Part shown: piece by piece, positions 3,044-52,868 of the stretch
Layout: each line of letters starts with the position of its first letter
How positions within the stretch are numbered: the first letter of the stretch is position 1
Virus record (IMG/VR): IMGVR_UViG_3300021400_000141
Span: 257,354 to 321,353 of that record
Source of the DNA: a virus
Lineage: Duplodnaviria; Heunggongvirae; Uroviricota; Caudoviricetes
Length of the DNA stretch: 64,000 nucleotides
Reading direction: 5' to 3' (one strand)
Position numbers and translations under genes: made by a program
The notes under the pieces: model-generated
Seen by the model: only the letters and a program-made list of their open reading frames with translations
Told to the model about the DNA's origin: nothing
Database searches by the model: none

Positions 3044-3999
3044 TACATATGCAACTGGCAGACTTTTTAACACAAGATGAACTCGGCAGTATCGACCCTG
3101 GTATTGTAACCAAGATTGAATCGAATTGCAATAAGGCGATAGCTGACTACGAGGCGAAGGGCGACCGGCAATTCAAGTCCTTGGTCGAGGCGGTATCGGG
3201 ACAATTCGATGCATTGGTTAAGCCTGCTGTCCAGAAAAAGGTTGACAGCATGGGCGAAAATGCTGTCAAGGGCAAGCTGTTCGAGGCTTTGCAGAAGATT
3301 GTAAATGTCCTTGAAGAATGCCAGATAGAAACGACGCAGGAAAGGGAAGCCAAGAAGACGGTTGCACAGTTGAAGGCTGAACTTCAGGAAAAGGTGGTCG
3401 AATACAAGCGTGCTATGAAGCAGCTTATGTATGCCAAGATTGCCGATAAGGTCCTCCGTGAAACTAACGGTTATCGTCCAGACCTCCAACAGAAGGCTGT
3501 GGAATACTTCACTGACCCGAAGCGTGATATTTCCCTAGACGACCTGAAACGTGAAGACATCTTCAACTATATCAACGGCGTCGATGACAACAAGACGACG
3601 AGCAGCGAGTTTAGCGGCATCGGCGAAATCAAGGCTCCAAACCAAGTTGATATGAACGAACTGAACGAGATAGCCGACAGTCTGATGCACGATGACATCG
3701 AAGAAAACGGGCTGGAGAACTATCGCAAGAACAACCTCAAAGTGAACGAAGTTAGATATCCCGCTGGTGGAAACGCTGCTGTCAGCAAAAGGATGCGTCC
3801 TGCACCCAAACTGGCCTCCGTAGGCTTCGGCAGCAAGTCTGCTGCATTTGAAGCCCTTGGGCAGGGACTATCCCAGAACAAGGTGTATAACAGCCCTGAT
3901 GTGACCAAGGAAATGCTCTCCCAGCCTACGTCGCTGGAACCAGATGTTTCCGATGATGATGTCAGGCAGGCAATGAATGCGATGAACGTGTTCATCTAA
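3040..3999 (+). CDS. Probable prohead scaffold/core protein (gp22-like)
   Basis: Coiled-coil-like sequence directly after and overlapping the protease gene, as in T4 gene order. Confidence 0.5.
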   Translation: MIHMQLADFLTQDELGSIDPGIVTKIESNCNKAIADYEAKGDRQFKSLVEAVSGQFDALVKPAVQKKVDSMGENAVKGKLFEALQKIVNVLEECQIETTQEREAKKTVAQLKAELQEKVVEYKRAMKQLMYAKIADKVLRETNGYRPDLQQKAVEYFTDPKRDISLDDLKREDIFNYINGVDDNKTTSSEFSGIGEIKAPNQVDMNELNEIADSLMHDDIEENGLENYRKNNLKVNEVRYPAGGNAAVSKRMRPAPKLASVGFGSKSAAFEALGQGLSQNKVYNSPDVTKEMLSQPTSLEPDVSDDDVRQAMNAMNVFI

Positions 4000-42885: not shown

Positions 42886-42959
42886 CGGGGTGTAGCTCAG
42901 TCTGGTAGAGCGCCTGCTTTGGGAGCAGGATGTCGTCAGTTCGAATCTGGCTACCCCGA
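42886..42959 (+). tRNA. tRNA-Pro(TGG)
   Basis: Cloverleaf; CCTGC-TTTGGGA-GCAGG. Confidence 0.9.
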
Positions 42960-43039
42960 CTATTTATAGGGAATGCAATGTCATTGGATACTCCGATGGG
43001 TATAAACTATTGTATATGTTTAATCTATTCGGAGCATTT

Positions 43040-43360
43040 ATGAATAGCAATGAAAAAATATATACAGCTTTCATGGAAAGTGTATGTACCCAGTTCAACT
43101 GCATGAATGCATTTCCTGCTCTCAACGAGGGATTTAGTGCTTTGTGCGAGGCGGAAACCTTTGAACCATCTGGTGATATGCAGAAGGAACTTGAGGGTTC
43201 TGCTCGTCAGAATAAGGAGAAGGGTGCGGTTGATATGCTGAGGAGGATGGCTCTATTCCTTGATGAAAAGAACATGCTTGGCGAATTTGCATTAGAAAAC
43301 CAAGACTTATACAAATATATTAACATTTTTGATTTAACTGGCAATCACGACCAATCCTAA
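43040..43360 (+). CDS. Hypothetical protein inside the tRNA array
   Basis: SD GGAG; TATAAACTA at 43001. Confidence 0.6.
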   Translation: MNSNEKIYTAFMESVCTQFNCMNAFPALNEGFSALCEAETFEPSGDMQKELEGSARQNKEKGAVDMLRRMALFLDEKNMLGEFALENQDLYKYINIFDLTGNHDQS

Positions 43361-43676
43361 GTTCTTTGTGTAAATTTCAGAGTGGTGGAGATTTCTCCAC
43401 CATAATGATGACTACTGTGTATAACACTTTGGTTATACGCTTGTGGAAAAGTGGATTTCGACAGTTTGCGGACACGGCGGTTAACAGTCGGCGTCCGACG
43501 CCACAACCAAAAAACAAATTGTCTATAATGGTAACAGGCTGGCGGTGTCCACTGGTCTCCATTCGGTGATTACCCGTCGTTGGCGGTAGGTTCGTGAGTT
43601 TTGAGTAAAGCTCTCTGCGTCCAATCCTGACGCACCCGTGACAACACGTGAAAGGGGTGGTGCCCATGGGTCTTGT

Positions 43677-43749
43677 TGGCATGTAGTTCAGTTGGTAGAA
43701 CGGGCGACTGTTAATCGCCAAGTCACTGGTTCGAGTCCAGTCTTGCCAG
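43677..43749 (+). tRNA. tRNA-Asn(GTT)
   Basis: Cloverleaf; GGCGA-CTGTTAA-TCGCC. Confidence 0.9.
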
Positions 43750-44027
43750 TTAAATTGGAACTTTGGGTCGCTCCCAAAGAACTCCGCAGGTGAAAAGCGG
43801 CCCCTAATAACTTGTGATAATTGCGTGGTAGCTCCATCGCAGGATACCCAAGCGAAAAGGGCAGCCTATTAGCCTGAGCATTTAAAAACGGGGCTCCGCA
43901 GGTGTTTAGCATTTACTCTGCGGAGAAGATGAAGGTCCTGGCGTCCAATGCTTGTATAAGTCAGTTCGACCATGCATCAGTGAAGTTTTTATCCATTTGT
44001 GCGGATATCGACCGTTCTTCACATTTT

Positions 44028-44100
44028 TCCGATGTAGCTCAGTTGGTAGAGCGGCTCATTTGTAATGAGCGGGTCGGGAGTTCGAGCCTCTCTATCGGAG
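44028..44100 (+). tRNA. tRNA-Thr(TGT)
   Basis: Cloverleaf; GCTCA-TTTGTAA-TGAGC. Confidence 0.9.
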
Positions 44101-44110
44101 CTATTTTTAT

Positions 44111-44181
44111 TCGCGTATAGCTTAACTGGAAGAGTGGCCTGTCTGCAGCAGGAAACAAAGGTTCGATTCCTTTTGCGCGAG
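44111..44181 (+). tRNA. Atypical tRNA; anticodon reads TGC with C33, identity unclear
   Basis: Good acceptor and T arms; anticodon stem CCTG/CAGG with loop TCTGCAG; no G3:U70. Confidence 0.55.
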
Positions 44182-44189
44182 CTATGTAT

Positions 44190-44262
44190 TGCCGATTCGC
44201 CAAGCTGGTAAGGCACAGGACTCTGACTCCTGTATTCGGGCGTTCGAACCGCTCATCGGCAA
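44190..44262 (+). tRNA. tRNA-Gln(CTG)
   Basis: Cloverleaf; CAGGA-CTCTGAC-TCCTG. Confidence 0.9.
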
Positions 44263-44275
44263 CTATGAAGAAATT

Positions 44276-44349
44276 TGCGGGGTGGAGCAGTTGGTAGCTT
44301 GTTGGGCCCATAACCCAAAGGTCGCGGAGTTCGAGTCCCGCCCCCGCTA
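44276..44349 (+). tRNA. Initiator tRNA-fMet(CAT)
   Basis: GGG/CCC pairs in the anticodon stem; 1:72 mismatch. Confidence 0.85.
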
Positions 44350-44356
44350 CTAATTT

Positions 44357-44445
44357 GATTGGCCATGGGTTGTCATGACGGCATTTGGTAAATATCGAAG
44401 CCTACCAAGTGGAAGGTTAAATTCCTTCACAATCCTTGGTCAATC
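44357..44445 (+). ncRNA. Degenerate tRNA-like element
   Basis: Acceptor-like stem GGGTTGT/ACAATCC and T-arm GAAGG-TTAAATT-CCTTC; 12-nt loop in place of the anticodon loop; no D arm. Confidence 0.45.
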
Positions 44446-44450
44446 ATTTT

Positions 44451-44523
44451 GCCGATGTAGCTCAGTTGGTCGAGCGGAAGCCTGAAGAGCTTCGCGTCGG
44501 GGGTTCGATTCCCTCCGTCGGCA
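44451..44523 (+). tRNA. tRNA-Phe(GAA)
   Basis: Cloverleaf; GAAGC-CTGAAGA-GCTTC. Confidence 0.9.
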
Positions 44524-44526
44524 CTA

Positions 44527-44595
44527 CACATAGGTGAAATGACGTAGGTGCCCACCGTGTGGGATTTTGGTGGTTCTAAACCACCCACCTATGTG
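44527..44595 (+). ncRNA. tRNA-like element with no anticodon loop
   Basis: CACATAGGTG/CACCTATGTG stem, CCCAC-CGT-GTGGG, T-arm GGTGG-TTCTAAA-CCACC. Confidence 0.5.
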
Positions 44596-44600
44596 TTTAT

Positions 44601-44674
44601 CCGCAGCTATAGCAATTGGTTAGATAGCCACTCTGATAAGGTGGAGGCTCCTGGTTCGAGTCCAGGGTTGCGGA
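44601..44674 (+). tRNA. tRNA-Ile(GAT)
   Basis: Cloverleaf; CCACT-CTGATAA-GGTGG. Confidence 0.85.
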
Positions 44675-44685
44675 CTACATTTTTT

Positions 44686-44759
44686 GGCGCTATCGAATAA
44701 CTGGCCTAGTTCATCGCCCTTTCAAGGCGGCAATACGGGTTCGAGTCCCGTTGGCGCTA
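44686..44759 (+). tRNA. tRNA-Glu(TTC)
   Basis: Cloverleaf; TCGCC-CTTTCAA-GGCGG. Confidence 0.85.
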
Positions 44760-44981
44760 CTAAAAGTCATGCTTGGTAGTACAAGGTAAAACTATTGCTC
44801 GCAGCCGACTTCGGGTCGGGTTCCGAGATATGCCGACATCCTAAATCGGCAGTATGGCGAATTGAAGAAGTCCTTGATAGCAACGGACAACTGATGCGGC
44901 TTCTTCATACAAGGCACAATACTCCGTTCACCTTTGTAGCCGAGGCGCTTTTCTCAATAGTACGTGTCAAAATTGTATTTT

Positions 44982-45054
44982 TCCGACGTAGCTCAGTTGG
45001 TAGAGCAGGGCTTTCGTAAAGCTCAGGTCGTAAGTTCAAGTCTTACTGTCGGAG
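44982..45054 (+). tRNA. tRNA-Thr(CGT)
   Basis: Cloverleaf; GGGCT-TTCGTAA-AGCTC. Confidence 0.9.
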
Positions 45055-45284
45055 TTAAAGACATCTGGCTAAATGTCCGTCATTGAGGGCCAGACCCGTT
45101 TCGTTCGGACAGCGATGGACGGGAGGCGTGATGAAGCCTGCTATTAAAAGGTAACGATACCCATCTAGGTCTATGTAAGGGCTGGTAGGTGAGCCCGTTC
45201 GCAACATAGATGACAAACCGATGGTCTCGGCGACAAGCGGAAAGGATGCCGTAACCCCCGCAGCTCCTCGAATTCATCAAACTT

Positions 45285-45358
45285 CGGAATATAGCTCAGT
45301 CTGGTAGAGCGCTTGCTTCGGGAGCAAGAGGCCGCAGGTCCAAATCCTGCCATTCCGA
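45285..45358 (+). tRNA. tRNA-Pro(CGG)
   Basis: Cloverleaf; CTTGC-TTCGGGA-GCAAG. Confidence 0.9.
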
Positions 45359-45768
45359 CTAAAACACAAATGAGTAGAACCCGTGTTGCATCGTTCATGT
45401 TCATGCTAGCGGGCTAACCCAGATGGGGAAAACTCTGGGATGAGGAATCTGTCTCTGCGAATTATGAATGAAAGAATGGTGGTCGCAGAGGTGTAGTATT
45501 GGCTCTACTAAAATATGCCACGTGAGACCATTTGAAATAAGAATGGGGGAGATAAACTTTGGGTTAACCACCAAGTGTGCTCCTTAATCCGTCCTTGAAA
45601 TTAGGATGCCTGTAAGTTTGTGTTTAAATTAAAAGGCCGTTATGCCTTTCCTGATGTAAACCGTGATGTTGTAAGGAATGTCAGTCGTACGGTCTGTGTG
45701 AGATACCTAAGAACCATTGGGCCACTCACCATAATAAAAGGCTTAGTCAGGGATGTCACGTACTTTTC

Positions 45769-45842
45769 GGCTCTATCGAATAACTGGTTCAGTTCGTTAG
45801 CCTCTCAAGCTAGAAATTCGGGTTCAAGTCCCGATGGAGCTA
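45769..45842 (+). tRNA. tRNA-Glu(CTC)
   Basis: Cloverleaf; TTAGC-CTCTCAA-GCTAG. Confidence 0.85.
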
Positions 45843-45846
45843 TTAT

Positions 45847-45929
45847 GCAGCCATGCTGAAATTGGTAGCCAGGCCAGCCTGTCACGCTGGTGTCCTATGG
45901 GCGTGCGAGTTCAAGTCTCGCTGGTTGCG
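45847..45929 (+). tRNA. tRNA-Asp(GTC) with a long variable arm (Leu-like class II body)
   Basis: CCAGC-CTGTCAC-GCTGG; variable arm TGTCCTATGGGCGT; G73. Confidence 0.8.
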
Positions 45930-45936
45930 CTAATTC

Positions 45937-46011
45937 ACTTCCATAGCTCAGTTGGTTCAGAGCGCTTGCCTTACAAGCAAGGGGTCATAGGTTCGAATCC
46001 TATTGGGAGTA
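45937..46011 (+). tRNA. tRNA-Val(TAC)
   Basis: Cloverleaf; CTTGC-CTTACAA-GCAAG. Confidence 0.9.
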
Positions 46012-46021
46012 CGAATTTACC

Positions 46022-46092
46022 CCCTCAGTAGTGTAATGGTAGCACAATAGCTTGTGGAGCTGTTAGTTCGAGTTCGAATCTCGGCTGGCGGA
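46022..46092 (+). tRNA. tRNA-His(GTG), lacking encoded G-1 and C73
   Basis: ATAGC-TTGTGGA-GCTGT; one acceptor-stem mismatch. Confidence 0.75.
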
Positions 46093-46262
46093 CTAAAATC
46101 AAAAACAGTATAAAAATCGTCATAGTTTATCCGCTGTTCTATGACAAAGTTTTTGCTCTTGCAAGGCGGACTCCGTCAATTAAGTCAATCATGTCGAGAC
46201 GGACATGGGATGTCGGAGGACGTGACCCCTGCTCGGTGTCAGGCTAAAACGCCGCCATTTTT

Positions 46263-46336
46263 GCTCTCGTAGCTCAACTGGATAGAGCGCCAGACTACGA
46301 ATCTGGAGGTTGCAAGTTCGAGCCTTGCCGAGAGTA
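46263..46336 (+). tRNA. tRNA-Arg(ACG)
   Basis: Cloverleaf; CCAGA-CTACGAA-TCTGG. Confidence 0.9.
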
Positions 46337-46349
46337 CTAGGATTTCATT

Positions 46350-46430
46350 GGAGGATTAGGCTAACTGGTAAGTCAGCGGTCTTGAAAACCGCCGTCGTAA
46401 GGCTTGGGGGTTCGAGTCCCTCATCCTCCG
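46350..46430 (+). tRNA. tRNA-Ser(TGA)
   Basis: GCGGT-CTTGAAA-ACCGC; long variable arm. Confidence 0.9.
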
Positions 46431-46610
46431 CTAAGTTTAATAGGCCATTAGCGTTCTTCTCGCAAAAGAGCTAATGACGGGTTGAAGCATGCGAGGTGCT
46501 TACGAACCCGAGGTGGCAAACGACTACAACTGGAGAAGTTTGAGGTTGCCCACGATGACGTACCTGCTATGAAAGACCGTAGACTGATAGTCCAAAAGCG
46601 TCATCACCGA

Positions 46611-46683
46611 TGCGGTGTAGCTCAGTTGGTAGAGCAACGGAATCATAATCCGTGTGTCAACGGTTCAAGTCCGTTCTCCGCAA
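46611..46683 (+). tRNA. tRNA-Met(CAT), elongator
   Basis: Cloverleaf; ACGGA-ATCATAA-TCCGT. Confidence 0.85.
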
Positions 46684-46797
46684 CTATGCAGCTCGGCAGT
46701 TAAACAATGCCGTTTCTGACAAAGATAAGGTTGGTCAGTATAAAGCGCTTCAACAACATAAGAACCTAAAGCAACGGGGGCTGCTATAATTTTAAAT

Positions 46798-46883
46798 CGG
46801 GTTGTGGCGGAATTGGTAGACGCGCACCGTTCAGGGCGGTGTTCCGCAAGCGAGGAGTGTGAGTTCGATTCTCACCAACCCGA
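46798..46883 (+). tRNA. tRNA-Leu(CAG)
   Basis: CACCG-TTCAGGG-CGGTG; long variable arm. Confidence 0.9.
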
Positions 46884-46947
46884 CGATGACAAGTTTTTTG
46901 ACAAGCAAAGATTTTTGTCAAATTTTCAACTTTTTTGACAAAACGGG

Positions 46948-46976
46948 TTGACAGTTGTCAATTATCTTTCTATATT
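46948..46976 (+). promoter_or_regulatory. Sigma70 promoter driving the second tRNA operon
   Basis: TTGACA-N17-TATATT. Confidence 0.8.
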
Positions 46977-46986
46977 TCAGAACGTG

Positions 46987-47033
46987 GTTGACACGCGATG
47001 TCAACTCGCTGATTGACAGTTCGGTTTTGCAAT
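46987..47033 (+). promoter_or_regulatory. Leader hairpin (CGCGA loop) plus 23-nt conserved motif, boxB/boxA-like
   Basis: GTTGACA-CGCGA-TGTCAAC then GATTGACAGTTCGGTTTTGCAAT. Confidence 0.55.
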
Positions 47034-47036
47034 TAT

Positions 47037-47109
47037 GGGGTATTAGCTCAGTTGGTAGAGCACCTGCTTTGCACGCAGGGGGTCAGGAGTTCGAATCTCC
47101 TATGCTCCA
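47037..47109 (+). tRNA. tRNA-Ala(TGC)
   Basis: Cloverleaf with G3:U70; CCTGC-TTTGCAC-GCAGG. Confidence 0.92.
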
Positions 47110-47343
47110 CGAATTTTAATGATACAAGCATACAACCGAGACATTGGAGCAACAATTCTCGGTGGCGATTAAATCGGCTTTGGATTTGCTAGTCCGAGAC
47201 AGAGATATTCAGCCGATTGACTGACTGGGCGACCGTTAATGTATGCTGAATCGATGTGGACCACAGGTGTGCGGTGCGACAGGGGAAGGTCAACCCTTCT
47301 TACGAGTCCCCTCGGGTCGAGTATCATTATTTATTTTTCTTTT

Positions 47344-47432
47344 GGGTTGACGGCGAAGATGGTGGTGTCGCGACGGTCTGTAAAACCGTTCCCTTAGGGT
47401 AAACACTGTAGGTCCGAATCCTACTCAACCCA
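47344..47432 (+). tRNA. tRNA-Tyr(GTA)
   Basis: ACGGT-CTGTAAA-ACCGT; long variable arm. Confidence 0.9.
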
Positions 47433-47437
47433 CTAAA

Positions 47438-47507
47438 AGTCAGTGTCGTTTGAAAGCGTTACTTAGGATGAAGCTAAAAATAACACGCTTTCTCTTTTTA
47501 CCTGACT
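47438..47507 (+). ncRNA. Free-standing copy A of the conserved RNA module (Y-RNA-like candidate)
   Basis: AGTCAG/CTGACT and GAAAGCGT/ACGCTTTC stems; TGTCG, TTACTT and TTTTTACC motifs. Confidence 0.6.
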
Positions 47508-47515
47508 TCTTTTGT

Positions 47516-47646
47516 TCCAGGATAGCTCAGTTGGTTAGAGCACGTAATAATACCTGTCCGTTTTTCCCCTGTGCAAGGGTGGCGTTTGGAATGGGTTACT
47601 TAGCCTGTTAAGCTCGGGGTCGTAGGTTCGAGTCCTACTCCTGGTA
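47516..47646 (+). tRNA. tRNA-Asn(GTT) interrupted by a 57-nt structured insert at position 28/29 (47545-47601)
   Basis: Removing the insert gives CGAGC-CTGTTAA-GCTCG and a 74-nt cloverleaf. Confidence 0.75.
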
Positions 47647-47657
47647 CTAATAAAATT

Positions 47658-47744
47658 TCCAGTGTCGCTAGAAACCGATACTTCGCTCTGTCTTTTCACA
47701 CAGATTGCCCGAATGGGCGTACACGGTTTCGCTTTTTACCTGGA
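47658..47744 (+). ncRNA. Free-standing copy B of the conserved RNA module
   Basis: TCCAG/CTGGA and GAAACCG/CGGTTTC stems; TGTCG, TACTT and GCTTTTTACC motifs. Confidence 0.6.
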
Positions 47745-47749
47745 TTTCT

Positions 47750-47874
47750 GCCGGCGTAGCTCAGTGGTAGAGCGCGTATAAACCTGTTCGCTTTTTCTCC
47801 CGCAAGGGTGGCGACAGAATGGGTTACTTAGTCTGCAAAACTCGTGGTCACAGGTTCGAATCCTGTCGCTGGCA
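47750..47874 (+). tRNA. tRNA-Cys(GCA) interrupted by a 53-nt structured insert at position 28/29 (47777-47829)
   Basis: Removing the insert gives CGAGT-CTGCAAA-ACTCG and a 72-nt cloverleaf. Confidence 0.75.
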
Positions 47875-48146
47875 CTAAGCAATCTTTCCGTTTCAGCGTA
47901 GCAGCAAACGGTGCCGATTCGCAGGCGGCACACCAAACCGTATGAGTAGCCTTTCCGTGGCTGGAAGGTGGCGAAAGACATAAGGTGATTCTTGCGGATA
48001 TATCGGTCGCTCCGATGAAATTTCCTTTTGTAAACGGCTGTTTCGCACAGCGCAAGCTCCCTTTCGGAAACAAAAGTTAAAAGGGATTATGATAGCAGAT
48101 GACCAAAAAGCCATTGGTAGTATGCGAAGGAACAAATGCGAGGTTA

Positions 48147-48220
48147 GGGATTCTAGCTCAATTGGTGAGAGCTACGGACTCATAACCCGTCGGTTCCGAG
48201 TTCAAGTCTCGGGGGTCCCA
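48147..48220 (+). tRNA. tRNA with CAT anticodon (probably Ile2, possibly Met)
   Basis: Cloverleaf, loop CTCATAA; third CAT tRNA in the array. Confidence 0.75.
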
Positions 48221-48550
48221 GAGTCTTGCTTTCTTACCGTTTGTTTACTGTGACGACATTGCAAATCAAACGGCCTCTAAAGTTGGAAGTAAAAAGGGCA
48301 GGAAGGATGCGGCGTCGAAAACCGTATCTGGTAATGCGGGTGAACTTCATATGAGGATAGTTCTATGCCTCGGAGAGTTTCAAATAGATAGCGTTTCGCA
48401 CCGTCCCGAGATGAAGGTGGGGTGTCAGCGACCCAAAGAGCTGATGGTGCAATAGATTGGTGCACAAATCTTAGCCTCCAGGTTTGGTGCAGTTCGGACT
48501 TCGGTTCGTCCTGTGTCGTGATTCGATTTCATGAAGGTTAACTATTTTAA

Positions 48551-48623
48551 GCGGATGTAGCTCAATTGGTAGAGTTCCTGCCCTCCAAGCAGGTTGTTGT
48601 GGGTTCGAGACCCATTATCCGCT
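48551..48623 (+). tRNA. tRNA-Gly(TCC)
   Basis: CCTGC-CCTCCAA-GCAGG; U73. Confidence 0.88.
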
Positions 48624-48630
48624 CGAATTC

Positions 48631-48703
48631 GAGTTCGTAGCTCAGATGGTAGAGCAATAGACTTTTAATCTATGGGTCGCGAGTTCGACTCTCGCCGAGC
48701 TCA
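48631..48703 (+). tRNA. tRNA-Lys(TTT)
   Basis: ATAGA-CTTTTAA-TCTAT. Confidence 0.9.
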
Positions 48704-48712
48704 CGAAAATAA

Positions 48713-48787
48713 GCTTCATTAGCTCAGTTTGGTTAGAGCAGGTGCCTCTTAAGCATCGGGTCCAAGGTTCGAGTCCTTGATGGAGCA
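48713..48787 (+). tRNA. tRNA-Lys(CTT)
   Basis: GGTGC-CTCTTAA-GCATC. Confidence 0.9.
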
Positions 48788-48797
48788 CTACATTTAC

Positions 48798-48870
48798 TGG
48801 GGTATCGTCAAGTTGGTAAGACATGGGATTTTGATTCCCATATTCGTTGGTTCGAGTCCAGCTACCCCAA
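48798..48870 (+). tRNA. tRNA-Gln(TTG)
   Basis: TGGGA-TTTTGAT-TCCCA. Confidence 0.9.
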
Positions 48871-49476
48871 CGAAATAGGCACTGAGAGATGGTCATGTGT
48901 TGCAAGACACGTTATAAAATCCAAAGGTTGCGGAGAAATCCACATAACGGGTGCCGACAAGATTTTTCCACAATCACAGTAAGCTTCCGTCTTCGCCACA
49001 ATGCAGTTGGCGGGAGTTATGGATAGGGTGCGAGTAGTTCACCGTGGACTGGCTTAGCATTCGTCTCGTGATGCCCAGATGCGTCATCCCGATTAGTTAA
49101 ACCCTTTTCGGTGAGGGCAGACTGCTCTCATTCTAGGTGTGGAAGTCAAGGGAGGAAGATGATGCACCAGTTCCTGTTCTGACTAACAGGATATGTTGCG
49201 TGAAGGGATGCAGGTATTAAAGCCCGCATGCGCCGACAAAGAATTGCAGCTGCCGTTCCGAATAGAGGCAGGTCCTTAATGAGGGCGGGTACAGCAATGT
49301 TGCTGCAAGAGGTGCATTAGGTCAAGATAACAGACGACTTCATGTTTTCAATCAGGTACTGTTCCCTGCGGTGAAACCGAAAACTGGCCGCATTGATTTG
49401 CGCATAGGTGCGGATGATTGTCTCTATAAGAGCACGGCTTTGCCATTCAGCTTGTCACGAAAGAGAATGGCGACTC

Positions 49477-49562
49477 GCGCAAGTACCCAAGCGGACGAAG
49501 GGGGAGGTCTGCAAAACCTCTAGGCCGAAAGGCTCGCGTAAGTTCGACTCTTACCTTGTGCT
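49477..49562 (+). tRNA. tRNA-Cys(GCA) with a long variable arm
   Basis: GAGGT-CTGCAAA-ACCTC; variable arm GGCC-GAAA-GGCT; U73. Confidence 0.8.
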
Positions 49563-49590
49563 TAACATTTTCAAAATCAAAGGAGATTCT

Positions 49591-49884
49591 ATGAATTTCT
49601 CGAAGAAAGATGTGGATTTTGCACCATCTCTTGTTGAATACAAGATGACAAAGATTCTTGAAGATAAGGCTATCTTCAAGAATGCTACATCGCCCAACAG
49701 GGATATTCTGAACAAGGTCTACGACCTGTATCAGCCCGCAGCCGCTGCCCATGGAGCCAAGCTCTGGCGTGTCTGGGATAAGTTCAACAAGGACACCCAC
49801 ACCTACACGGTGACGGTGGAAATCTTCAGGGGCAAGGATAAGCTCGTGCTGGAACACACGGCTAAACCTGCCGATGTTGATTAA
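49591..49884 (+). CDS. Hypothetical protein, paralog of the next gene
   Basis: SD AAGGAG; shares VYD.Y...G.K.WR.WD.F.KDTHT.T..VE.F.GK with 49902. Confidence 0.75.
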   Translation: MNFSKKDVDFAPSLVEYKMTKILEDKAIFKNATSPNRDILNKVYDLYQPAAAAHGAKLWRVWDKFNKDTHTYTVTVEIFRGKDKLVLEHTAKPADVD

Positions 49885-49901
49885 ACAGTAATGGAGACTC
49901 T

Positions 49902-50207
49902 ATGAGTACAACATTGGATAAAGTGAATGCTGCACAGGCTCTCGCCGCAGTGAAAGCTATCGTAGAACCGCAAGTGGAAAAGCTTTGCGAAAACAAGCTC
50001 TTGTTCAAGGATAGCGAAACGTCTAGGCGTGACACTCTCGATGCCGTTTATGACATTTATCGTAAGGCGACAATAAACAACGGTGTCAAGATGTGGCGTG
50101 CTTGGGACACTTTCGACAAGGATACGCACACATGTACGATATCTGTTGAAGTTTTTGCTGGAAAGGAAAAGGTCACGATTAAACACGTGGTTGGACCGAA
50201 ACAGTAA
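49902..50207 (+). CDS. Hypothetical protein, paralog of the previous gene
   Basis: SD GGAG; shares the same conserved motif. Confidence 0.75.
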   Translation: MSTTLDKVNAAQALAAVKAIVEPQVEKLCENKLLFKDSETSRRDTLDAVYDIYRKATINNGVKMWRAWDTFDKDTHTCTISVEVFAGKEKVTIKHVVGPKQ

Positions 50208-50215
50208 ATCCGATT

Positions 50216-50289
50216 GTGCTTGTAGCTCAGCTGGATAGAGCAACAGTTTCCTAAACTGTAGGTCGCCAGTTCGACTCTGGCCAAGCACA
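50216..50289 (+). tRNA. tRNA-Arg(CCT)
   Basis: ACAGT-TTCCTAA-ACTGT. Confidence 0.9.
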
Positions 50290-50294
50290 CTAAT

Positions 50295-50378
50295 GGAGAG
50301 ATGGCTGAATTGGTAAAAGCGGAGCTTTGCTAAAGCTTTGTCGGTAACGGCGCGCAGGTTCGAACCCTGTTCTCTCCT
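50295..50378 (+). tRNA. tRNA-Ser(GCT)
   Basis: GAGCT-TTGCTAA-AGCTT; long variable arm. Confidence 0.88.
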
Positions 50379-50386
50379 CTAATTTC

Positions 50387-50521
50387 CCCACAGTAGCTCA
50401 GTCTGGTAGAGCGCTAGTAAATGAAACAGTCTTCCGACTTTTTCCCTGCAAAGGTGACGCAGGAATGACTTACTTCGATAATGGTGACTGGATGTCGTAG
50501 GTTCAAATCCTGCCTGTGGGA
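50387..50521 (+). ncRNA. tRNA body (Pro-like) with the conserved module in the anticodon arm; no canonical anticodon recoverable
   Basis: Intact acceptor, D and T arms; insert has TTCCGACTTTTTCCC...GGTGACG...GAATGACTTACTT. Confidence 0.65.
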
Positions 50522-50530
50522 CTAAATTTC

Positions 50531-50604
50531 GTGGTTATAACATAGTCTGGTTAATGTGTCAGCTTGCCATGCTGGAGACCTGGGTTCAAATCCCAGTAAC
50601 CACT
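50531..50604 (+). tRNA. tRNA-Gly(GCC)
   Basis: TCAGC-TTGCCAT-GCTGG; U73. Confidence 0.85.
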
Positions 50605-50612
50605 TAAAACAT

Positions 50613-50763
50613 GCCGACGCCTCCCCGTCAATCTGGCGACAGGTTGATTAACGGTAGGGGAGGGTTCCTCTTACAACTTTCTCGGTGAAAATCGTTGCGA
50701 TGTGAGAGTTACTTAGATTGCCATAACATTAATCTTTTGAAAGTTCGACTCTTTCCGTCGGCA
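50613..50763 (+). ncRNA. Highly derived tRNA-like RNA with an enlarged D arm and a GTTACTT-containing insert
   Basis: GCCGACG/CGTCGGC acceptor; GAAAG-TTCGACT-CTTTC T-arm; CCTCCCC/GGGGAGG long stem. Confidence 0.55.
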
Positions 50764-50776
50764 TGTTTTTCTTTAC

Positions 50777-50914
50777 GCCAGATTAGCTCAATGGTAGAGC
50801 TCCAGGCCAAAAAACAGCACTTTCGCTTTTCCCAATCCCATGGATTGTGGTGTATGAAATGTGTTACTTAGGATAACACCCAGGAGGTTGTCGGTCCGAG
50901 TCCGACATCTGGCT
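50777..50914 (+). ncRNA. tRNA body with the conserved module in the anticodon arm, immediately upstream of the TROVE gene
   Basis: GCCAGAT/ATCTGGC acceptor, D and T arms; insert has TTTCGCTTTTCCC...GGTG...GAAATGTGTTACTT. Confidence 0.65.
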
Positions 50915-50966
50915 ATACTTTTTTAAACAACATCAACAATTCCTAATCACAACAAAGGAGATGATT

Positions 50967-52307
50967 ATGGCGTCGATTAACAAGAGAAAGGTATCTACCC
51001 CTGTGTTTACTCACGAGGGTGGAAAGGCTTCACACATCGGTTTCGAGGAGAAGTTGCAGCGTACTGTGCTGTGCTGCCTACTGAACGAGGATACGTTCTA
51101 TGAGGACGGAGAGTCCATCAAGGACCGCATCAAGGAATACATGGGCAAGGTCAGCACCGAGTTCGCAATCGCGACTCTGAACAAGGCCAAGCACGAGTAT
51201 CACCTTCGTCATACCCCGTTGTTCATGCTTACTGTGCTCGCAAGTCAGGGTAAGCTGACTAAGGAACTTGTTTATTCGACGGTAACCCGTGTTGATGACA
51301 TCACCGAGTTGCTCGCCATGTACCTCGCAGACGGCAAGAAGAAGACTCTTCCGAAGCAGTTGCAGAAGGGCTTGGCTATGTCGTTCGACAAGTTCGACGA
51401 GTACCAGTTCGGTAAGTACAAGGGTAGCAAGAAGACGGTTTCCTTGAAGGATGCAGTCATGCTGTGCCACCCGAAGGCACCGAATGACGAGAAGAACGCT
51501 CTCTACAAGAAGATTGTGGACAATAGCCTTGCTACTCCGCTTACTTGGGAGACTGAGTTGAGCGCTGGTAAGGACAAGAAGACGGTCTTCGAGAACCTTC
51601 TTTCAACGAACAAGCTGGGTGCACTCGCCCTGTTGAGAAACCTCCGCAACATGGAGCAGGCTCAGGTCTCGCAGCATGCAATCGTAGACGGCATCGCAAA
51701 GATGAACGTGTGTGGTATCATGCCGTACAACTTCTACACCGCAAACAAGCACAGCGATGGAACCTACTCCAAGCAGCTTGAGGCAGCAATGCTTAGGGCA
51801 GCTCGTGAGACGTTCGACAAGTTGGAGGGTAACACCTTGTTCATGGTCGATACGTCGGGTTCTATGAACAACTCTTTGGCAGGTAAGAGCGAGGTCTCTC
51901 GTGGAGAGGCTGCCGCATCCCTCGCTGCCATCATGGATGAGGTCTGTGAGTTCGACAAGGTTTACACCTTCGATATGGATGCACACGCAACCACATCCAA
52001 GGGCTTTGCACTTGCCGACCGTTGTGCTCGTTGCACTGGCGGTACTAACCTTTACGGTTGTACAAACAGTGCGGTTAGAGCTAACACCAGACCGTTTGAC
52101 CGTGTGATTATCATCACCGACGAGCAGTCTATTGGTGGTTCCTTCGACAAGGATGTTCTCCGCATCCCGCACAAGTACATCGTGAACGTTGCCCCTTACC
52201 AGTTCGGTATTGCATACGGTGACTTCATCCACATCAACGGATTCAGCGACGGTATTTTCAAGTACATCGCTGAGTACGAGAAGATGGGTGCAAAGAGCGA
52301 AGAGTAA
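50967..52307 (+). CDS. Ro60/TROVE-domain RNA-binding protein with a vWA domain
   Basis: THEGG, HLRHTPL, LTWETELS, LALLRNLRNM; vWA DTSGSM and IIITDEQ; SD AAGGAG. Confidence 0.9.
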   Translation: MASINKRKVSTPVFTHEGGKASHIGFEEKLQRTVLCCLLNEDTFYEDGESIKDRIKEYMGKVSTEFAIATLNKAKHEYHLRHTPLFMLTVLASQGKLTKELVYSTVTRVDDITELLAMYLADGKKKTLPKQLQKGLAMSFDKFDEYQFGKYKGSKKTVSLKDAVMLCHPKAPNDEKNALYKKIVDNSLATPLTWETELSAGKDKKTVFENLLSTNKLGALALLRNLRNMEQAQVSQHAIVDGIAKMNVCGIMPYNFYTANKHSDGTYSKQLEAAMLRAARETFDKLEGNTLFMVDTSGSMNNSLAGKSEVSRGEAAASLAAIMDEVCEFDKVYTFDMDAHATTSKGFALADRCARCTGGTNLYGCTNSAVRANTRPFDRVIIITDEQSIGGSFDKDVLRIPHKYIVNVAPYQFGIAYGDFIHINGFSDGIFKYIAEYEKMGAKSEE

Positions 52308-52329
52308 TTTCTTTGTTCGTTAGACATTA

Positions 52330-52356
52330 GGGTGGCCGAAAGGCCATCCGTTTTTT
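52330..52356 (+). terminator. Intrinsic terminator after TROVE
   Basis: GGGTGGCC-GAAA-GGCCATCC followed by TTTTTT. Confidence 0.7.
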
Positions 52357-52429
52357 AGGGCGTTCGACCAGTTGGTAGGTCTGCAGTCTCCAAAACTGTT
52401 AGTCGGTGGTTCGAGTCCATCACGTCCTG
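52357..52429 (+). tRNA. tRNA-Trp(CCA)
   Basis: GCAGT-CTCCAAA-ACTGT; G73. Confidence 0.88.
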
Positions 52430-52435
52430 CTATAT

Positions 52436-52518
52436 CGGTTAGTGGTGGAATGGAAGACACTCCAGCCTTAGGAGCTGGTGCTCGAAAGGGCGTGTGGGTT
52501 CGAGTCCCACCTTGCCGA
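52436..52518 (+). tRNA. tRNA-Leu(TAG)
   Basis: CCAGC-CTTAGGA-GCTGG; long variable arm. Confidence 0.88.
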
Positions 52519-52532
52519 TTATTTTTTCACTT

Positions 52533-52616
52533 CGGTAGGTGGCGGAACTGGTAGGCGCGTCAGCTTGAGGGGCTGGTGTTCGAAAGGACGTGAGGGTTCG
52601 AGTCCCTCCTTACCGA
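52533..52616 (+). tRNA. tRNA-Leu(GAG)
   Basis: TCAGC-TTGAGGG-GCTGG. Confidence 0.9.
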
Positions 52617-52641
52617 CTATCTTGAACTTGATTGACTGTTT

Positions 52642-52725
52642 CGGTAGGTGGCGGAATTGGCATACGCGCCAGACTCAAAATCTGGTATTCGCAAGAGTGT
52701 GAGGGTTCAAGCCCCTCCCTACCGA
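52642..52725 (+). tRNA. tRNA-Leu(CAA)
   Basis: CCAGA-CTCAAAA-TCTGG. Confidence 0.9.
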
Positions 52726-52736
52726 CTAATGAACTT

Positions 52737-52809
52737 GCCCGAGTAGCTCAATGGATAGAGCAACGGTTTTCTAAACCGTCGGTTACAGGTTCGACCCCTG
52801 TCTCGGGTA
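52737..52809 (+). tRNA. tRNA-Arg(TCT)
   Basis: ACGGT-TTTCTAA-ACCGT. Confidence 0.9.
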
Positions 52810-52838
52810 CTAATTGCAAAACCGAAAGATGAAATCAT

Positions 52839-52868
52839 GGGCCCGACTTCAATAGTCGGGCCTTTTTT
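52839..52868 (+). terminator. Intrinsic terminator closing the tRNA array
   Basis: GGCCCGACT-TCAAT-AGTCGGGCC followed by TTTTTT. Confidence 0.8.

Follow-up and report, generated by a model that had tools for sequence, protein, structure and literature searches.

The window analysed here is a 64,000-nucleotide (nt) stretch of a Caudoviricetes phage genome, positions 257,354 to 321,353 of IMG/VR record IMGVR_UViG_3300021400_000141; the phage genome measures 419,423 base pairs (bp) and has terminal repeats. On its plus strand lies an RNA region (42886-52810) with 36 ordinary transfer RNA (tRNA) genes and a gene for a TROVE-domain Ro60 protein. This report concerns two genes upstream of Ro60, here called e2 and e3, which are built as tRNAs from end to end and carry a long arm, here called the module, at the place of the anticodon loop. 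The module has two strands, alpha and beta, and was modelled in its embedded form with a covariance model, R1. The central features are as follows.

50387-50521, plus strand: e2, a tRNA-order Y-RNA-like gene (Rfam tRNA model 46.8 bits, R1 63.5 bits); acceptor stem 50387-50393/50514-50520, D arm 50396-50412, anticodon-type stem 50414-50418/50487-50491, module 50419-50475, tail 50476-50486, variable (V) loop 50492-50496, T arm 50497-50513, discriminator A 50521
50419-50475, plus strand: e2 module; alpha strand AAAC-AGUC-UUCCG-AC-UUUUU-CCC, loop UGCAAA, beta strand GG-U-GA-CG-CAG-GAAUG-AC-UUACUU
50777-50914, plus strand: e3, a tRNA-order Y-RNA-like gene (Rfam tRNA model 43.5 bits, R1 54.3 bits); acceptor stem 50777-50783/50907-50913, D arm 50786-50800, anticodon-type stem 50802-50806/50880-50884, module 50807-50869, tail 50870-50879, T arm 50890-50906
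50807-50869, plus strand: e3 module, with a longer helix P3; CCCAAUCC-CAU-GGAUUG-U-GG
50961-52307, plus strand: TROVE/Ro60 gene, 448 amino acids (Pfam TROVE, E 3e-15)

The bounds that a first-pass annotation of this DNA had given for e2 and e3 are exact: they are the ends of end-to-end matches to the Rfam tRNA model, which spans model positions 1 to 71 in both genes, with 68 nt (e2) and 72 nt (e3) in place of the 7-nt anticodon loop. Its claim that the acceptor, D and T arms are intact is likewise borne out, both by reading the letters and by the Rfam model. The acceptor of e2 pairs CCCACAG with CUGUGGG, its D arm is GCUC-9-GAGC, its anticodon-type stem CUAGU/ACUGG, its V loop AUGUC, its Levitt pair G15:C48 and its T arm GUAGG-UUCAAAU-CCUGC. 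In e3 the acceptor is GCCAGAU/AUCUGGC, the D arm GCUC-7-GAGC, the stem CCAGG/CCAGG with a central A.A, the Levitt pair A15:U48 and the T arm GUCGG-UCCGAGU-CCGAC; the T loop of the window copy has C55, and the relatives have the usual UUCGAG. Direct reading also finds G18 and G19, U54-A58, a 5-nt variable loop, the discriminator and a 5-bp anticodon-type stem in both genes. This stem encloses a module of 57 nt (e2) or 63 nt (e3) followed by a tail of 11 nt or 10 nt. CCA is not encoded by any of the tRNA-like genes described here.

Judged as decoding tRNAs, e2 and e3 have the cloverleaf with its 7-bp acceptor stem and its D and T arms, and neither shows the 7-nt loop of a decoder, in which U33, a purine at 37 and an anticodon kept in orthologues would be expected; the letters in loop position number 68 in e2 and 73 in e3. 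As the first-pass annotation had noted, cutting after UUACUU restores no normal anticodon arm: 11 nt (e2) and 10 nt (e3) are left before the 3′ stem strand, and the best loops on offer are those it named, AAUGGUG in e2 (no U33, Y37) and AUAACAC in e3 on a stem with the A.A mismatch. None of the excisions tried yields a canonical anticodon arm for e2 or e3; the same cut does so for two further module-bearing genes, e0 and e1, described below. With introns allowed, ARAGORN forces the readings Leu(GAG) for e2 and Val(AAC) for e3, which we discount because these triplets are not kept in relatives.

Those relatives are seven viral contigs whose Ro60 proteins are 84-96% identical to the one in the window and in which all elements are present in the same order. 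In e2, all 21 cloverleaf pairs are intact in the five distinct sequences, with compensatory changes at 1:72, 5:68, 28:42 and 51:63. In e3, 98.6% of alignment cells are paired, as against 24-39% in a control with slid partners, and compensatory changes occur at 3:70, 31:39 and 51:63 as well as in P3 of the module; the central A.A mismatch of its stem is itself conserved. The tails behave quite differently. That of e2 reads CGAUAAUGGUG, CGAUAAUGGGA or CGAUGAGGA, while that of e3 has four versions of 10-12 nt, whose last seven letters are AUAACAC, GAAUCAU, AAUCCAC or AAUCCAA and whose "anticodon" is AAC, AUC or UCC. The anticodon hairpin of e0 is identical in all relatives, unlike the loop-equivalent bases of e2 and e3, which vary in sequence and length. 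Because stems are kept by compensation while tails vary and the e0 hairpin is invariant, e2 and e3 are, judged by this pattern of substitution, selected for tRNA shape and not for decoding.

The module is not confined to these two genes. Seven copies lie in the operon, in three wirings: inside an intact anticodon-type stem (e2 and e3, and in remodelled form e4), splitting the anticodon stem at 28/29 (e0 and e1), or free-standing with the strand order reversed and the RNA ends paired (copies A and B). The remaining copies, and the one ordinary tRNA gene among them, are listed here.

47438-47507, plus strand: free-standing copy A; beta strand first and alpha strand last, ends pairing as P3 (the classical Y-RNA layout); kept in all relatives
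47516-47647, plus strand: e0, tRNA body split at 28/29 (R1 67.2 bits); removal of the module gives CGAGC-CUGUUAA-GCUCG (Asn GUU)
47658-47744, plus strand: free-standing copy B, laid out as copy A
47750-47874, plus strand: e1, laid out as e0 (Rfam tRNA model 48.9 bits, R1 59.1 bits); removal of the module gives CGAGU-CUGCAAA-ACUCG (Cys GCA)
50531-50604, plus strand: ordinary tRNA-Gly(GCC) between e2 and e4 (ARAGORN and Rfam, 65.1 bits)
50609-50766, plus strand: e4, a remodelled tRNA-like RNA between e2 and e3 (fold z-score -3.9)

The first-pass annotation had recognised that e2 and e3 share their insert motifs with 47516-47647 and 47750-47874, and we find the same series in all four: UUYCG, a U run, CCC..GGUGR, CG/UG, GAAUG, NN and UUACUU. 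An alignment of 22 distinct embedded copies (A1) gives the module a helix P1, whose pairs 14:62, 15:61 and 16:60 are formed in 100% of sequences by CG, GC, AU and UA types, and a helix P3 with an invariant bulged U, in which 29:46 is CG in 17 copies and UA in 5. One side of the internal loop between the helices consists of an invariant G and a U run, and the facing side of YG with 3-4 further nt; the columns of a candidate CG/CG pairing of 2 bp inside this loop are invariant. At a fixed position every one of the 22 sequences carries UUAC, CUAC or GUAC, which matches the YUAY of YrlA RNAs. An extra helix in e2, UGAA/UUCG, uses the final two U of UUACUU. The remodelled e4, which is kept in the seven relatives at 76-99% identity, has a 10-bp acceptor-like stem, a large hairpin where a D arm would be, a variant of the module with GAGAGUUACUU at its end, one small hairpin and a T arm, and a GAAA-capped hairpin in it covaries. 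Because the two strands persist across wirings while their connectivity changes, the module looks like a protein-binding helix.

The genomic evidence points to Ro60 as the protein. From e3 it is 47 nt to the start of the Ro60 gene, which shares with e3 both its strand and a promoter-to-terminator unit with the following boundaries.

46948-46976, plus strand: strong promoter-like site TTGACA-17-TATATT (11 of 12 matches), heading a unit with all seven module copies and Ro60
52839-52863, plus strand: strong terminator-like hairpin closing the unit

Across the 419-kilobase (kb) genome, R1 matches e0 to e3 only, all within 3.5 kb upstream of Ro60. Among solved structures the best relative of the protein comes from Thermus phage phiLo, whose Ro60 (9KOP/9L5Y) matches residues 12-438 with E 1e-25. 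Modules also lie directly upstream of Ro60, on its strand, in loci L014, L017, L018 and L019, where Ro60 is only 42-53% identical; no credible module was found in L015 or L016, and in L013 (Ro60 60% identical) the contig ends and leaves no room for RNA upstream of the gene. We further scanned 75 viral Ro60 loci (36-44% protein identity) with R1 at E up to 10. This gave 41 matches in 24 loci. Of these matches 40 share the strand of Ro60, and 35 fall, on that strand, in the 1 kb upstream of the gene, a stretch that makes up 5.9% of the space scanned (binomial P about 2e-37). A DNA search of cultured phages with 50200-52400 returned tRNA-sized matches only and no near relative in that collection.

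How does the module relate to known Y RNAs? The RF02553 consensus of YrlA has the 5′ strand cggCgaAUGC-uggGgaa-CUAc and the 3′ strand uucCcca-aAaAcUuG-ucGccg, and these two Ro-stem strands are matched by the module beta strand, GGCGA..GAAUG-(P1)-UUAC, and by the alpha strand of the wider family, (P1)-CUUGUCGC-UUGUU-CCCC. Chen et al. 2014 (PMC4201824) proposed GNCGAAN0-1G as the Rsr site and noted YUAY after it; the exact form GGCGAAG occurs in modules of L019, L043, L048, L056 and L057, and GAUAGAAUG of L003 is identical to the 5′ end of a YrlA-like RNA in L031. Read from the apical loop, e2 and e3 run through beta strand, V region, T arm, acceptor, D arm and alpha strand, which is the order of YrlA. 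Because the strands match and the order agrees, e2 and e3 are, by motif and layout, circular permutations of YrlA; put otherwise, YrlA is their permuted form. The first-pass description of these genes as permuted YrlA with native tRNA ends thus holds at the level of sequence, given the Ro60 neighbour, the match of both strands, the shared order and the linkage to Ro60 in multiple phages.

The kinship and the difference can be stated for each known system. YrlA (RF02553), known from Salmonella, M. smegmatis, mycobacteriophages and CcrColossus (PMC4201824, 10.1101/312249) and likened to circularly permuted tRNAs by Wang et al. 2018, who give its structure (10.1101/312249), is Ro60-adjacent and present in several copies per locus, as e2 and e3 are. 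It too combines D and T arms with a Levitt pair in a tRNA-like domain, and the alternation of that pair between G15:C48 and A15:U48 was reported for YrlA (PMC4201824). One strand of its stem bears (GN)CGAAUG..YUAY and the opposite one ..UUGUCGCC..; e2 and e3 have a stem of this type, in which the first motif is split into GRCG-N3-GAAUG. YrlA, however, ends in the Ro-binding stem, has a closed acceptor hairpin and places its T arm before its D arm, whereas in e2 and e3 the gene's two ends form a normal 7-bp acceptor stem, D precedes T, and the Ro-type stem is loop-closed at the anticodon-loop position. After RNase P cleavage the YrlA of M. smegmatis also acquires a tRNA-like end, its acceptor being opened, trimmed and given CCA (Chen et al. 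2014), but this end results from cutting a closed loop and leaves two pieces, while the free ends of e2 and e3 are gene-encoded. Yrn1 of D. radiodurans is a Ro60-bound Y RNA with a T-arm-like hairpin and an order of tRNA-like parts that differs from YrlA; unlike e2 and e3, it has the Ro-binding stem in place of the acceptor stem and a hairpin with a 6-nt loop at the anticodon position. Yrl1 and Yrl2 of phiLo lie upstream of a phage Ro60 and show stem, internal loop, stem and a CGAA motif, but are plain hairpins for which no tRNA body is described (PMC12135203). The b7a-tRNA of Burroughs and Aravind 2016, so far as the citing account (10.1101/312249) goes, is a predicted whole-tRNA-like non-coding RNA of RtcB repair loci that occasionally stands beside Rsr, and that account describes no Ro-type stem for it. 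Red algae and archaea have circularly permuted tRNA genes (Soma 2007, cited through 10.1101/312249), which show that tRNA and permuted orders can interconvert; those genes, as cited there, are matured to decoding tRNAs by a splicing endonuclease, and neither the enzyme nor such a product was seen here. Our search turned up these Y RNAs but no publication that describes one with the native order of a tRNA; the reviews PMC10870794 and PMC6047535 and the survey by Burroughs and Aravind (2016) lay outside that search.

Within the window RF02553 stays below its gathering cut-off of 69 bits, with matches of only 16.6-24.1 bits, each made up of one gene's T arm and the D arm of the gene that follows, which we reject as real YrlA; one of them, 50737-50800 (16.6 bits), consists of the e4 T arm and the e3 D arm. 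The metazoan-type Y RNA model RF00019 has no match at E up to 10 in 47400-51100, and for the inserts Rfam, both at gathering and at E up to 10, names nothing except tRNAs. YrlA-like RNAs in canonical order do occur in some distant Ro60 loci without an R1 match (L026, L030 and L031; 32-35 bits, below the 69-bit cut-off), and those of L026 and L031 have the two strands of the module. Over the whole analysis, YrlA-like RNAs of phages scored 32-43 bits.

The anticodon-less tRNA order recurs in distant phages. For example, L039 2376-2505 matches the Rfam tRNA model at 50.5 bits and encloses an R1 match of 26 bits, with the stem AAAGU/ACUUU and a 7-nt tail, CAUUGGA, that lacks U33; L098 1060-1187 and L019 1760-1892 are built in the same way. 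In the cultured Caulobacter phage CcrColossus, for which YrlA-type RNAs were reported in 2014 (PMC4201824), D arm, module and T arm elements lie upstream of the TROVE gene. R1 reaches only about 10 bits on CcrColossus and on a crAss-like phage, whose apical parts are much longer, and the CcrColossus layout rests on motif reading.

Four metatranscriptome runs from different studies contain RNA from the region. One contig of 767 nt, from what is probably the source sample, equals 50118-50884 with no differences, and others cover e4, e3 and e2. Depth along the region varies fifty-fold, and because it is so uneven we take real RNA to be present in the libraries. The contigs are colinear over e2, e4 and e3 and no contig joint skips a module, although such contigs, assembled from size-selected libraries, can reveal neither mature ends nor levels, nor prove that splicing is absent. 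The few apparent skips, for example one between 50412 and 50494 and one between 47541 and 47618 that has 19 other letters, were rejected, being ordinary tRNAs of other organisms that match the conserved arms.

We propose that e2 and e3 are probably non-decoding, un-permuted YrlA-like Y RNAs that would be excised by tRNA-processing enzymes and bound by the phage Ro60, with the body engaging a partner. They would be transcribed together with the phage tRNA operon and the Ro60 mRNA. Host RNase P and 3′-end enzymes would excise them like tRNAs, and CCA would then be added; we expect as much because the 7-bp acceptor, the discriminator and the D and T arms with their elbow contacts are kept. The long arm at the anticodon-loop position would be the docking site, an irregular helix in which GRCG..GAAUG..YUAC faces UUYCG and a U-rich loop, and homology and linkage suggest that Ro60 from the next gene binds it. 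The tRNA-like body may be the effector-binding second half of the particle, as proposed for YrlA, and, more speculatively, could bring Ro60 to a tRNA-handling partner, with the phage RtcB ligase, PNPase and a host anticodon nuclease as candidates. Several points weigh against this proposal. Two registers of the helix P2 score alike, so that the proposed docking site may have either of two fine structures, and covariation in the module is mostly between paralogues. The copies in the window split the Rsr motif into GRCG, 3-4 nt and GAAUG and have no contiguous GNCGAA, and neither the Rfam YrlA nor the Y_RNA model matches e2 or e3 significantly, which for YrlA is partly forced by the permutation. 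Finally, the perfect arms that e0, e1 and similar elements regain on removal of the module keep alive the idea that it is excisable.

Some of these points also suit other explanations. The split motif and the missing Rfam match would fit if the module bound a protein other than Ro60, or regulated the operon in cis, with the adjacency of Ro60 an inherited synteny. We regard this as improbable, since the module accompanies Ro60, on its strand, in loci that have nothing else in common and whose Ro60 proteins are only 36-44% identical, both YrlA stem strands are matched at motif level, and the Ro60 of phiLo binds in vitro, in an electrophoretic mobility shift assay, Y-like RNAs encoded just upstream of its gene (PMC12135203). 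There is a small but real chance that the tRNA bodies are mere processing punctuation, RNase P and RNase Z signals that release module hairpins and the 5′ end of the Ro60 mRNA and that would have no further role once cut: the Ro60 start follows the end of e3 at 47 nt, the free-standing copies A and B sit exactly between tRNA genes, and two successive RNA contigs of run X6 leave off at 50884 and resume at 50912. A minihelix would be enough for such cutting, yet compensatory changes preserve the D arms in full, together with the Levitt pairs and the 5-bp anticodon stems; after such cuts the module would still be joined covalently to the tRNA body, and RNA contig X17 crosses 50884-50912. Decay into pseudogenes, that is, insert-bearing tRNAs that have lost their anticodon arms, could account for C55 in the T loop of the window copy of e3, for the A.A mismatch in its stem and for the variable tails. 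It is nevertheless very improbable in view of the conserved mismatch, the presence of both genes at the same place in the seven contigs with compensatory rather than disruptive changes, and the same layout in unrelated lineages.

The reading of e2 and e3 as intron-bearing pre-tRNAs, from which the module is excised and the halves joined, for example by the phage RtcB, to give tRNAs with odd anticodon loops, draws on a wider pattern. Exact removal of the module from e0 and e1 leaves perfect 5-bp stems and canonical loops, and the same restoration is seen in L017 1-395 (Thr, Pro and Tyr), L018 2836-2950 (Glu), L019 about 1975-2100 and L038 (Asn), L066 (Gly) and L085 (Pro). RtcB is encoded in the phage genome, at 347045-348321 outside the window, directly after a lone tRNA-Leu(UAA) and far from the main tRNA array and Ro60. 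ARAGORN's intron mode, as noted, calls Leu and Val. Applied to e2 and e3, however, the cut rule of e0 and e1 leaves 9-12 variable bases in non-conserved loops without U33, and because of this e2 and e3 are not of the e0/e1 kind. No EndA-type endonuclease (PF01974) and no Rnl-type ligase were found in the genome, no group I, intron or ribozyme family of Rfam matches these RNAs, and a bulge-helix-bulge reading of the e0 and e1 junctions was rejected on inspection by hand. We consider splicing of e2 and e3 quite improbable, and the first-pass suggestion that they function unspliced fits the non-conserved loop-equivalent bases, the lack of a splicing endonuclease and the colinear RNA contigs. For the module that splits the stem at 28/29 in many Ro60 phages there are two readings: a new small tRNA intron, or else a permanent side arm, the counterpart of the "V stem-loop" found after YUAY in many YrlA RNAs, to which the hairpin of e0 and e1 corresponds by position. 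A bolder idea, to which we give a slim chance, is that the Ro60 module is a removable element and that this phage family runs a protein-dependent circuit of tRNA maturation or repair of a kind not known from bacteria and their viruses. The insert-bearing tRNAs (Asn, Cys, Thr, Pro, Tyr, Glu and Gly in different phages) would then be latent "pro-tRNAs", which Ro60 holds until cleavage and RtcB ligation activate them, and e2 and e3 would be permanently uncleavable and act on this machinery, or on host anticodon nucleases, as decoys or regulators.

Y RNAs are regarded as descendants of tRNAs, and permuted YrlA has reportedly been modelled as arising from a dimeric tRNA transcript. To our knowledge, every bacterial Y RNA characterised until now ends in its Ro-binding stem. 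What is new here, as far as gene layout tells, is complete genes in tRNA order in which a Ro-type stem replaces the anticodon loop, the reverse wiring of published YrlA. Such tRNA-order Y RNAs are a plausible intermediate between tRNAs and YrlA, and they offer a one-step route to the latter, namely the sequence that two copies in tandem enclose from one apical loop to the other. In a softer version of the circuit idea, confined to origin, tRNA-order Y RNAs would be ancestral and canonical YrlA would derive from two tandem copies, apical loop to apical loop. The tRNA-order genes also predict a Ro60 particle with a free acceptor end, possibly CCA-tailed and chargeable. If this is true, synthetases, EF-Tu, the CCA enzyme and RtcB become possible partners, and the role of the tRNA half of a Y RNA becomes directly testable. 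The layout is widespread in phage Ro60 loci, including that of the cultured CcrColossus, so experiments are feasible. Seven module copies in three wirings within one operon suggest that phages may use Ro60 in host conflicts centred on tRNA.

A number of further observations were made along the way. Where two tRNA-order units stand in tandem, every part of canonical YrlA is already present in its proper order from one apical loop to the next. In CcrColossus (L103 1660-2500) an annotated tRNA-Gln is directly preceded by a module beta strand (GGUGGCGUAGAUGUCACUUACUU), and an array of module-bearing tRNA-like units fills all 800 nt ahead of the TROVE gene. The module also has a second dialect, ..CCGAUUGUUCYCC.. 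with ..GUAGUGUAG..ACAGUUACAUC, at L020 2100-3000 and L026 2778-3020; this dialect occurs as a hairpin, in tRNA order and in canonical YrlA order, alongside tRNA bodies of 88-104 nt with a shorter insert in the anticodon arm. In more distant relatives the e1 orthologues (L005 3547-3676, L008 2642-2772 and L009 3341-3471) have an 8-nt loop, AUUAGGAA, in place of CUGCAAA, and at L073 about 3350-3490 a body with a short variable arm has the 7-nt loop AUUAGGA with a UAG triplet.

Between the tRNA genes, two spacers free of open reading frames (ORFs), 47884-48488 and 48973-49456, reach a depth of 360-930 against 7-50 in their flanks in three metatranscriptomes; they are conserved in relatives, belong to no Rfam family and look like abundant structured phage RNAs. 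The segment 49885-50217 is absent from RNA contigs of three studies, which have 9 other letters instead, a strain-level difference in presence; it holds an ORF of 101 amino acids (49902-50207), a paralogue of the preceding ORF at 49408-49884. Finally, at 388452-388720 of the genome, outside the window, ARAGORN calls a tRNA-Thr(CGU) with an insert of 175 nt in the anticodon loop, which may be a group I intron.

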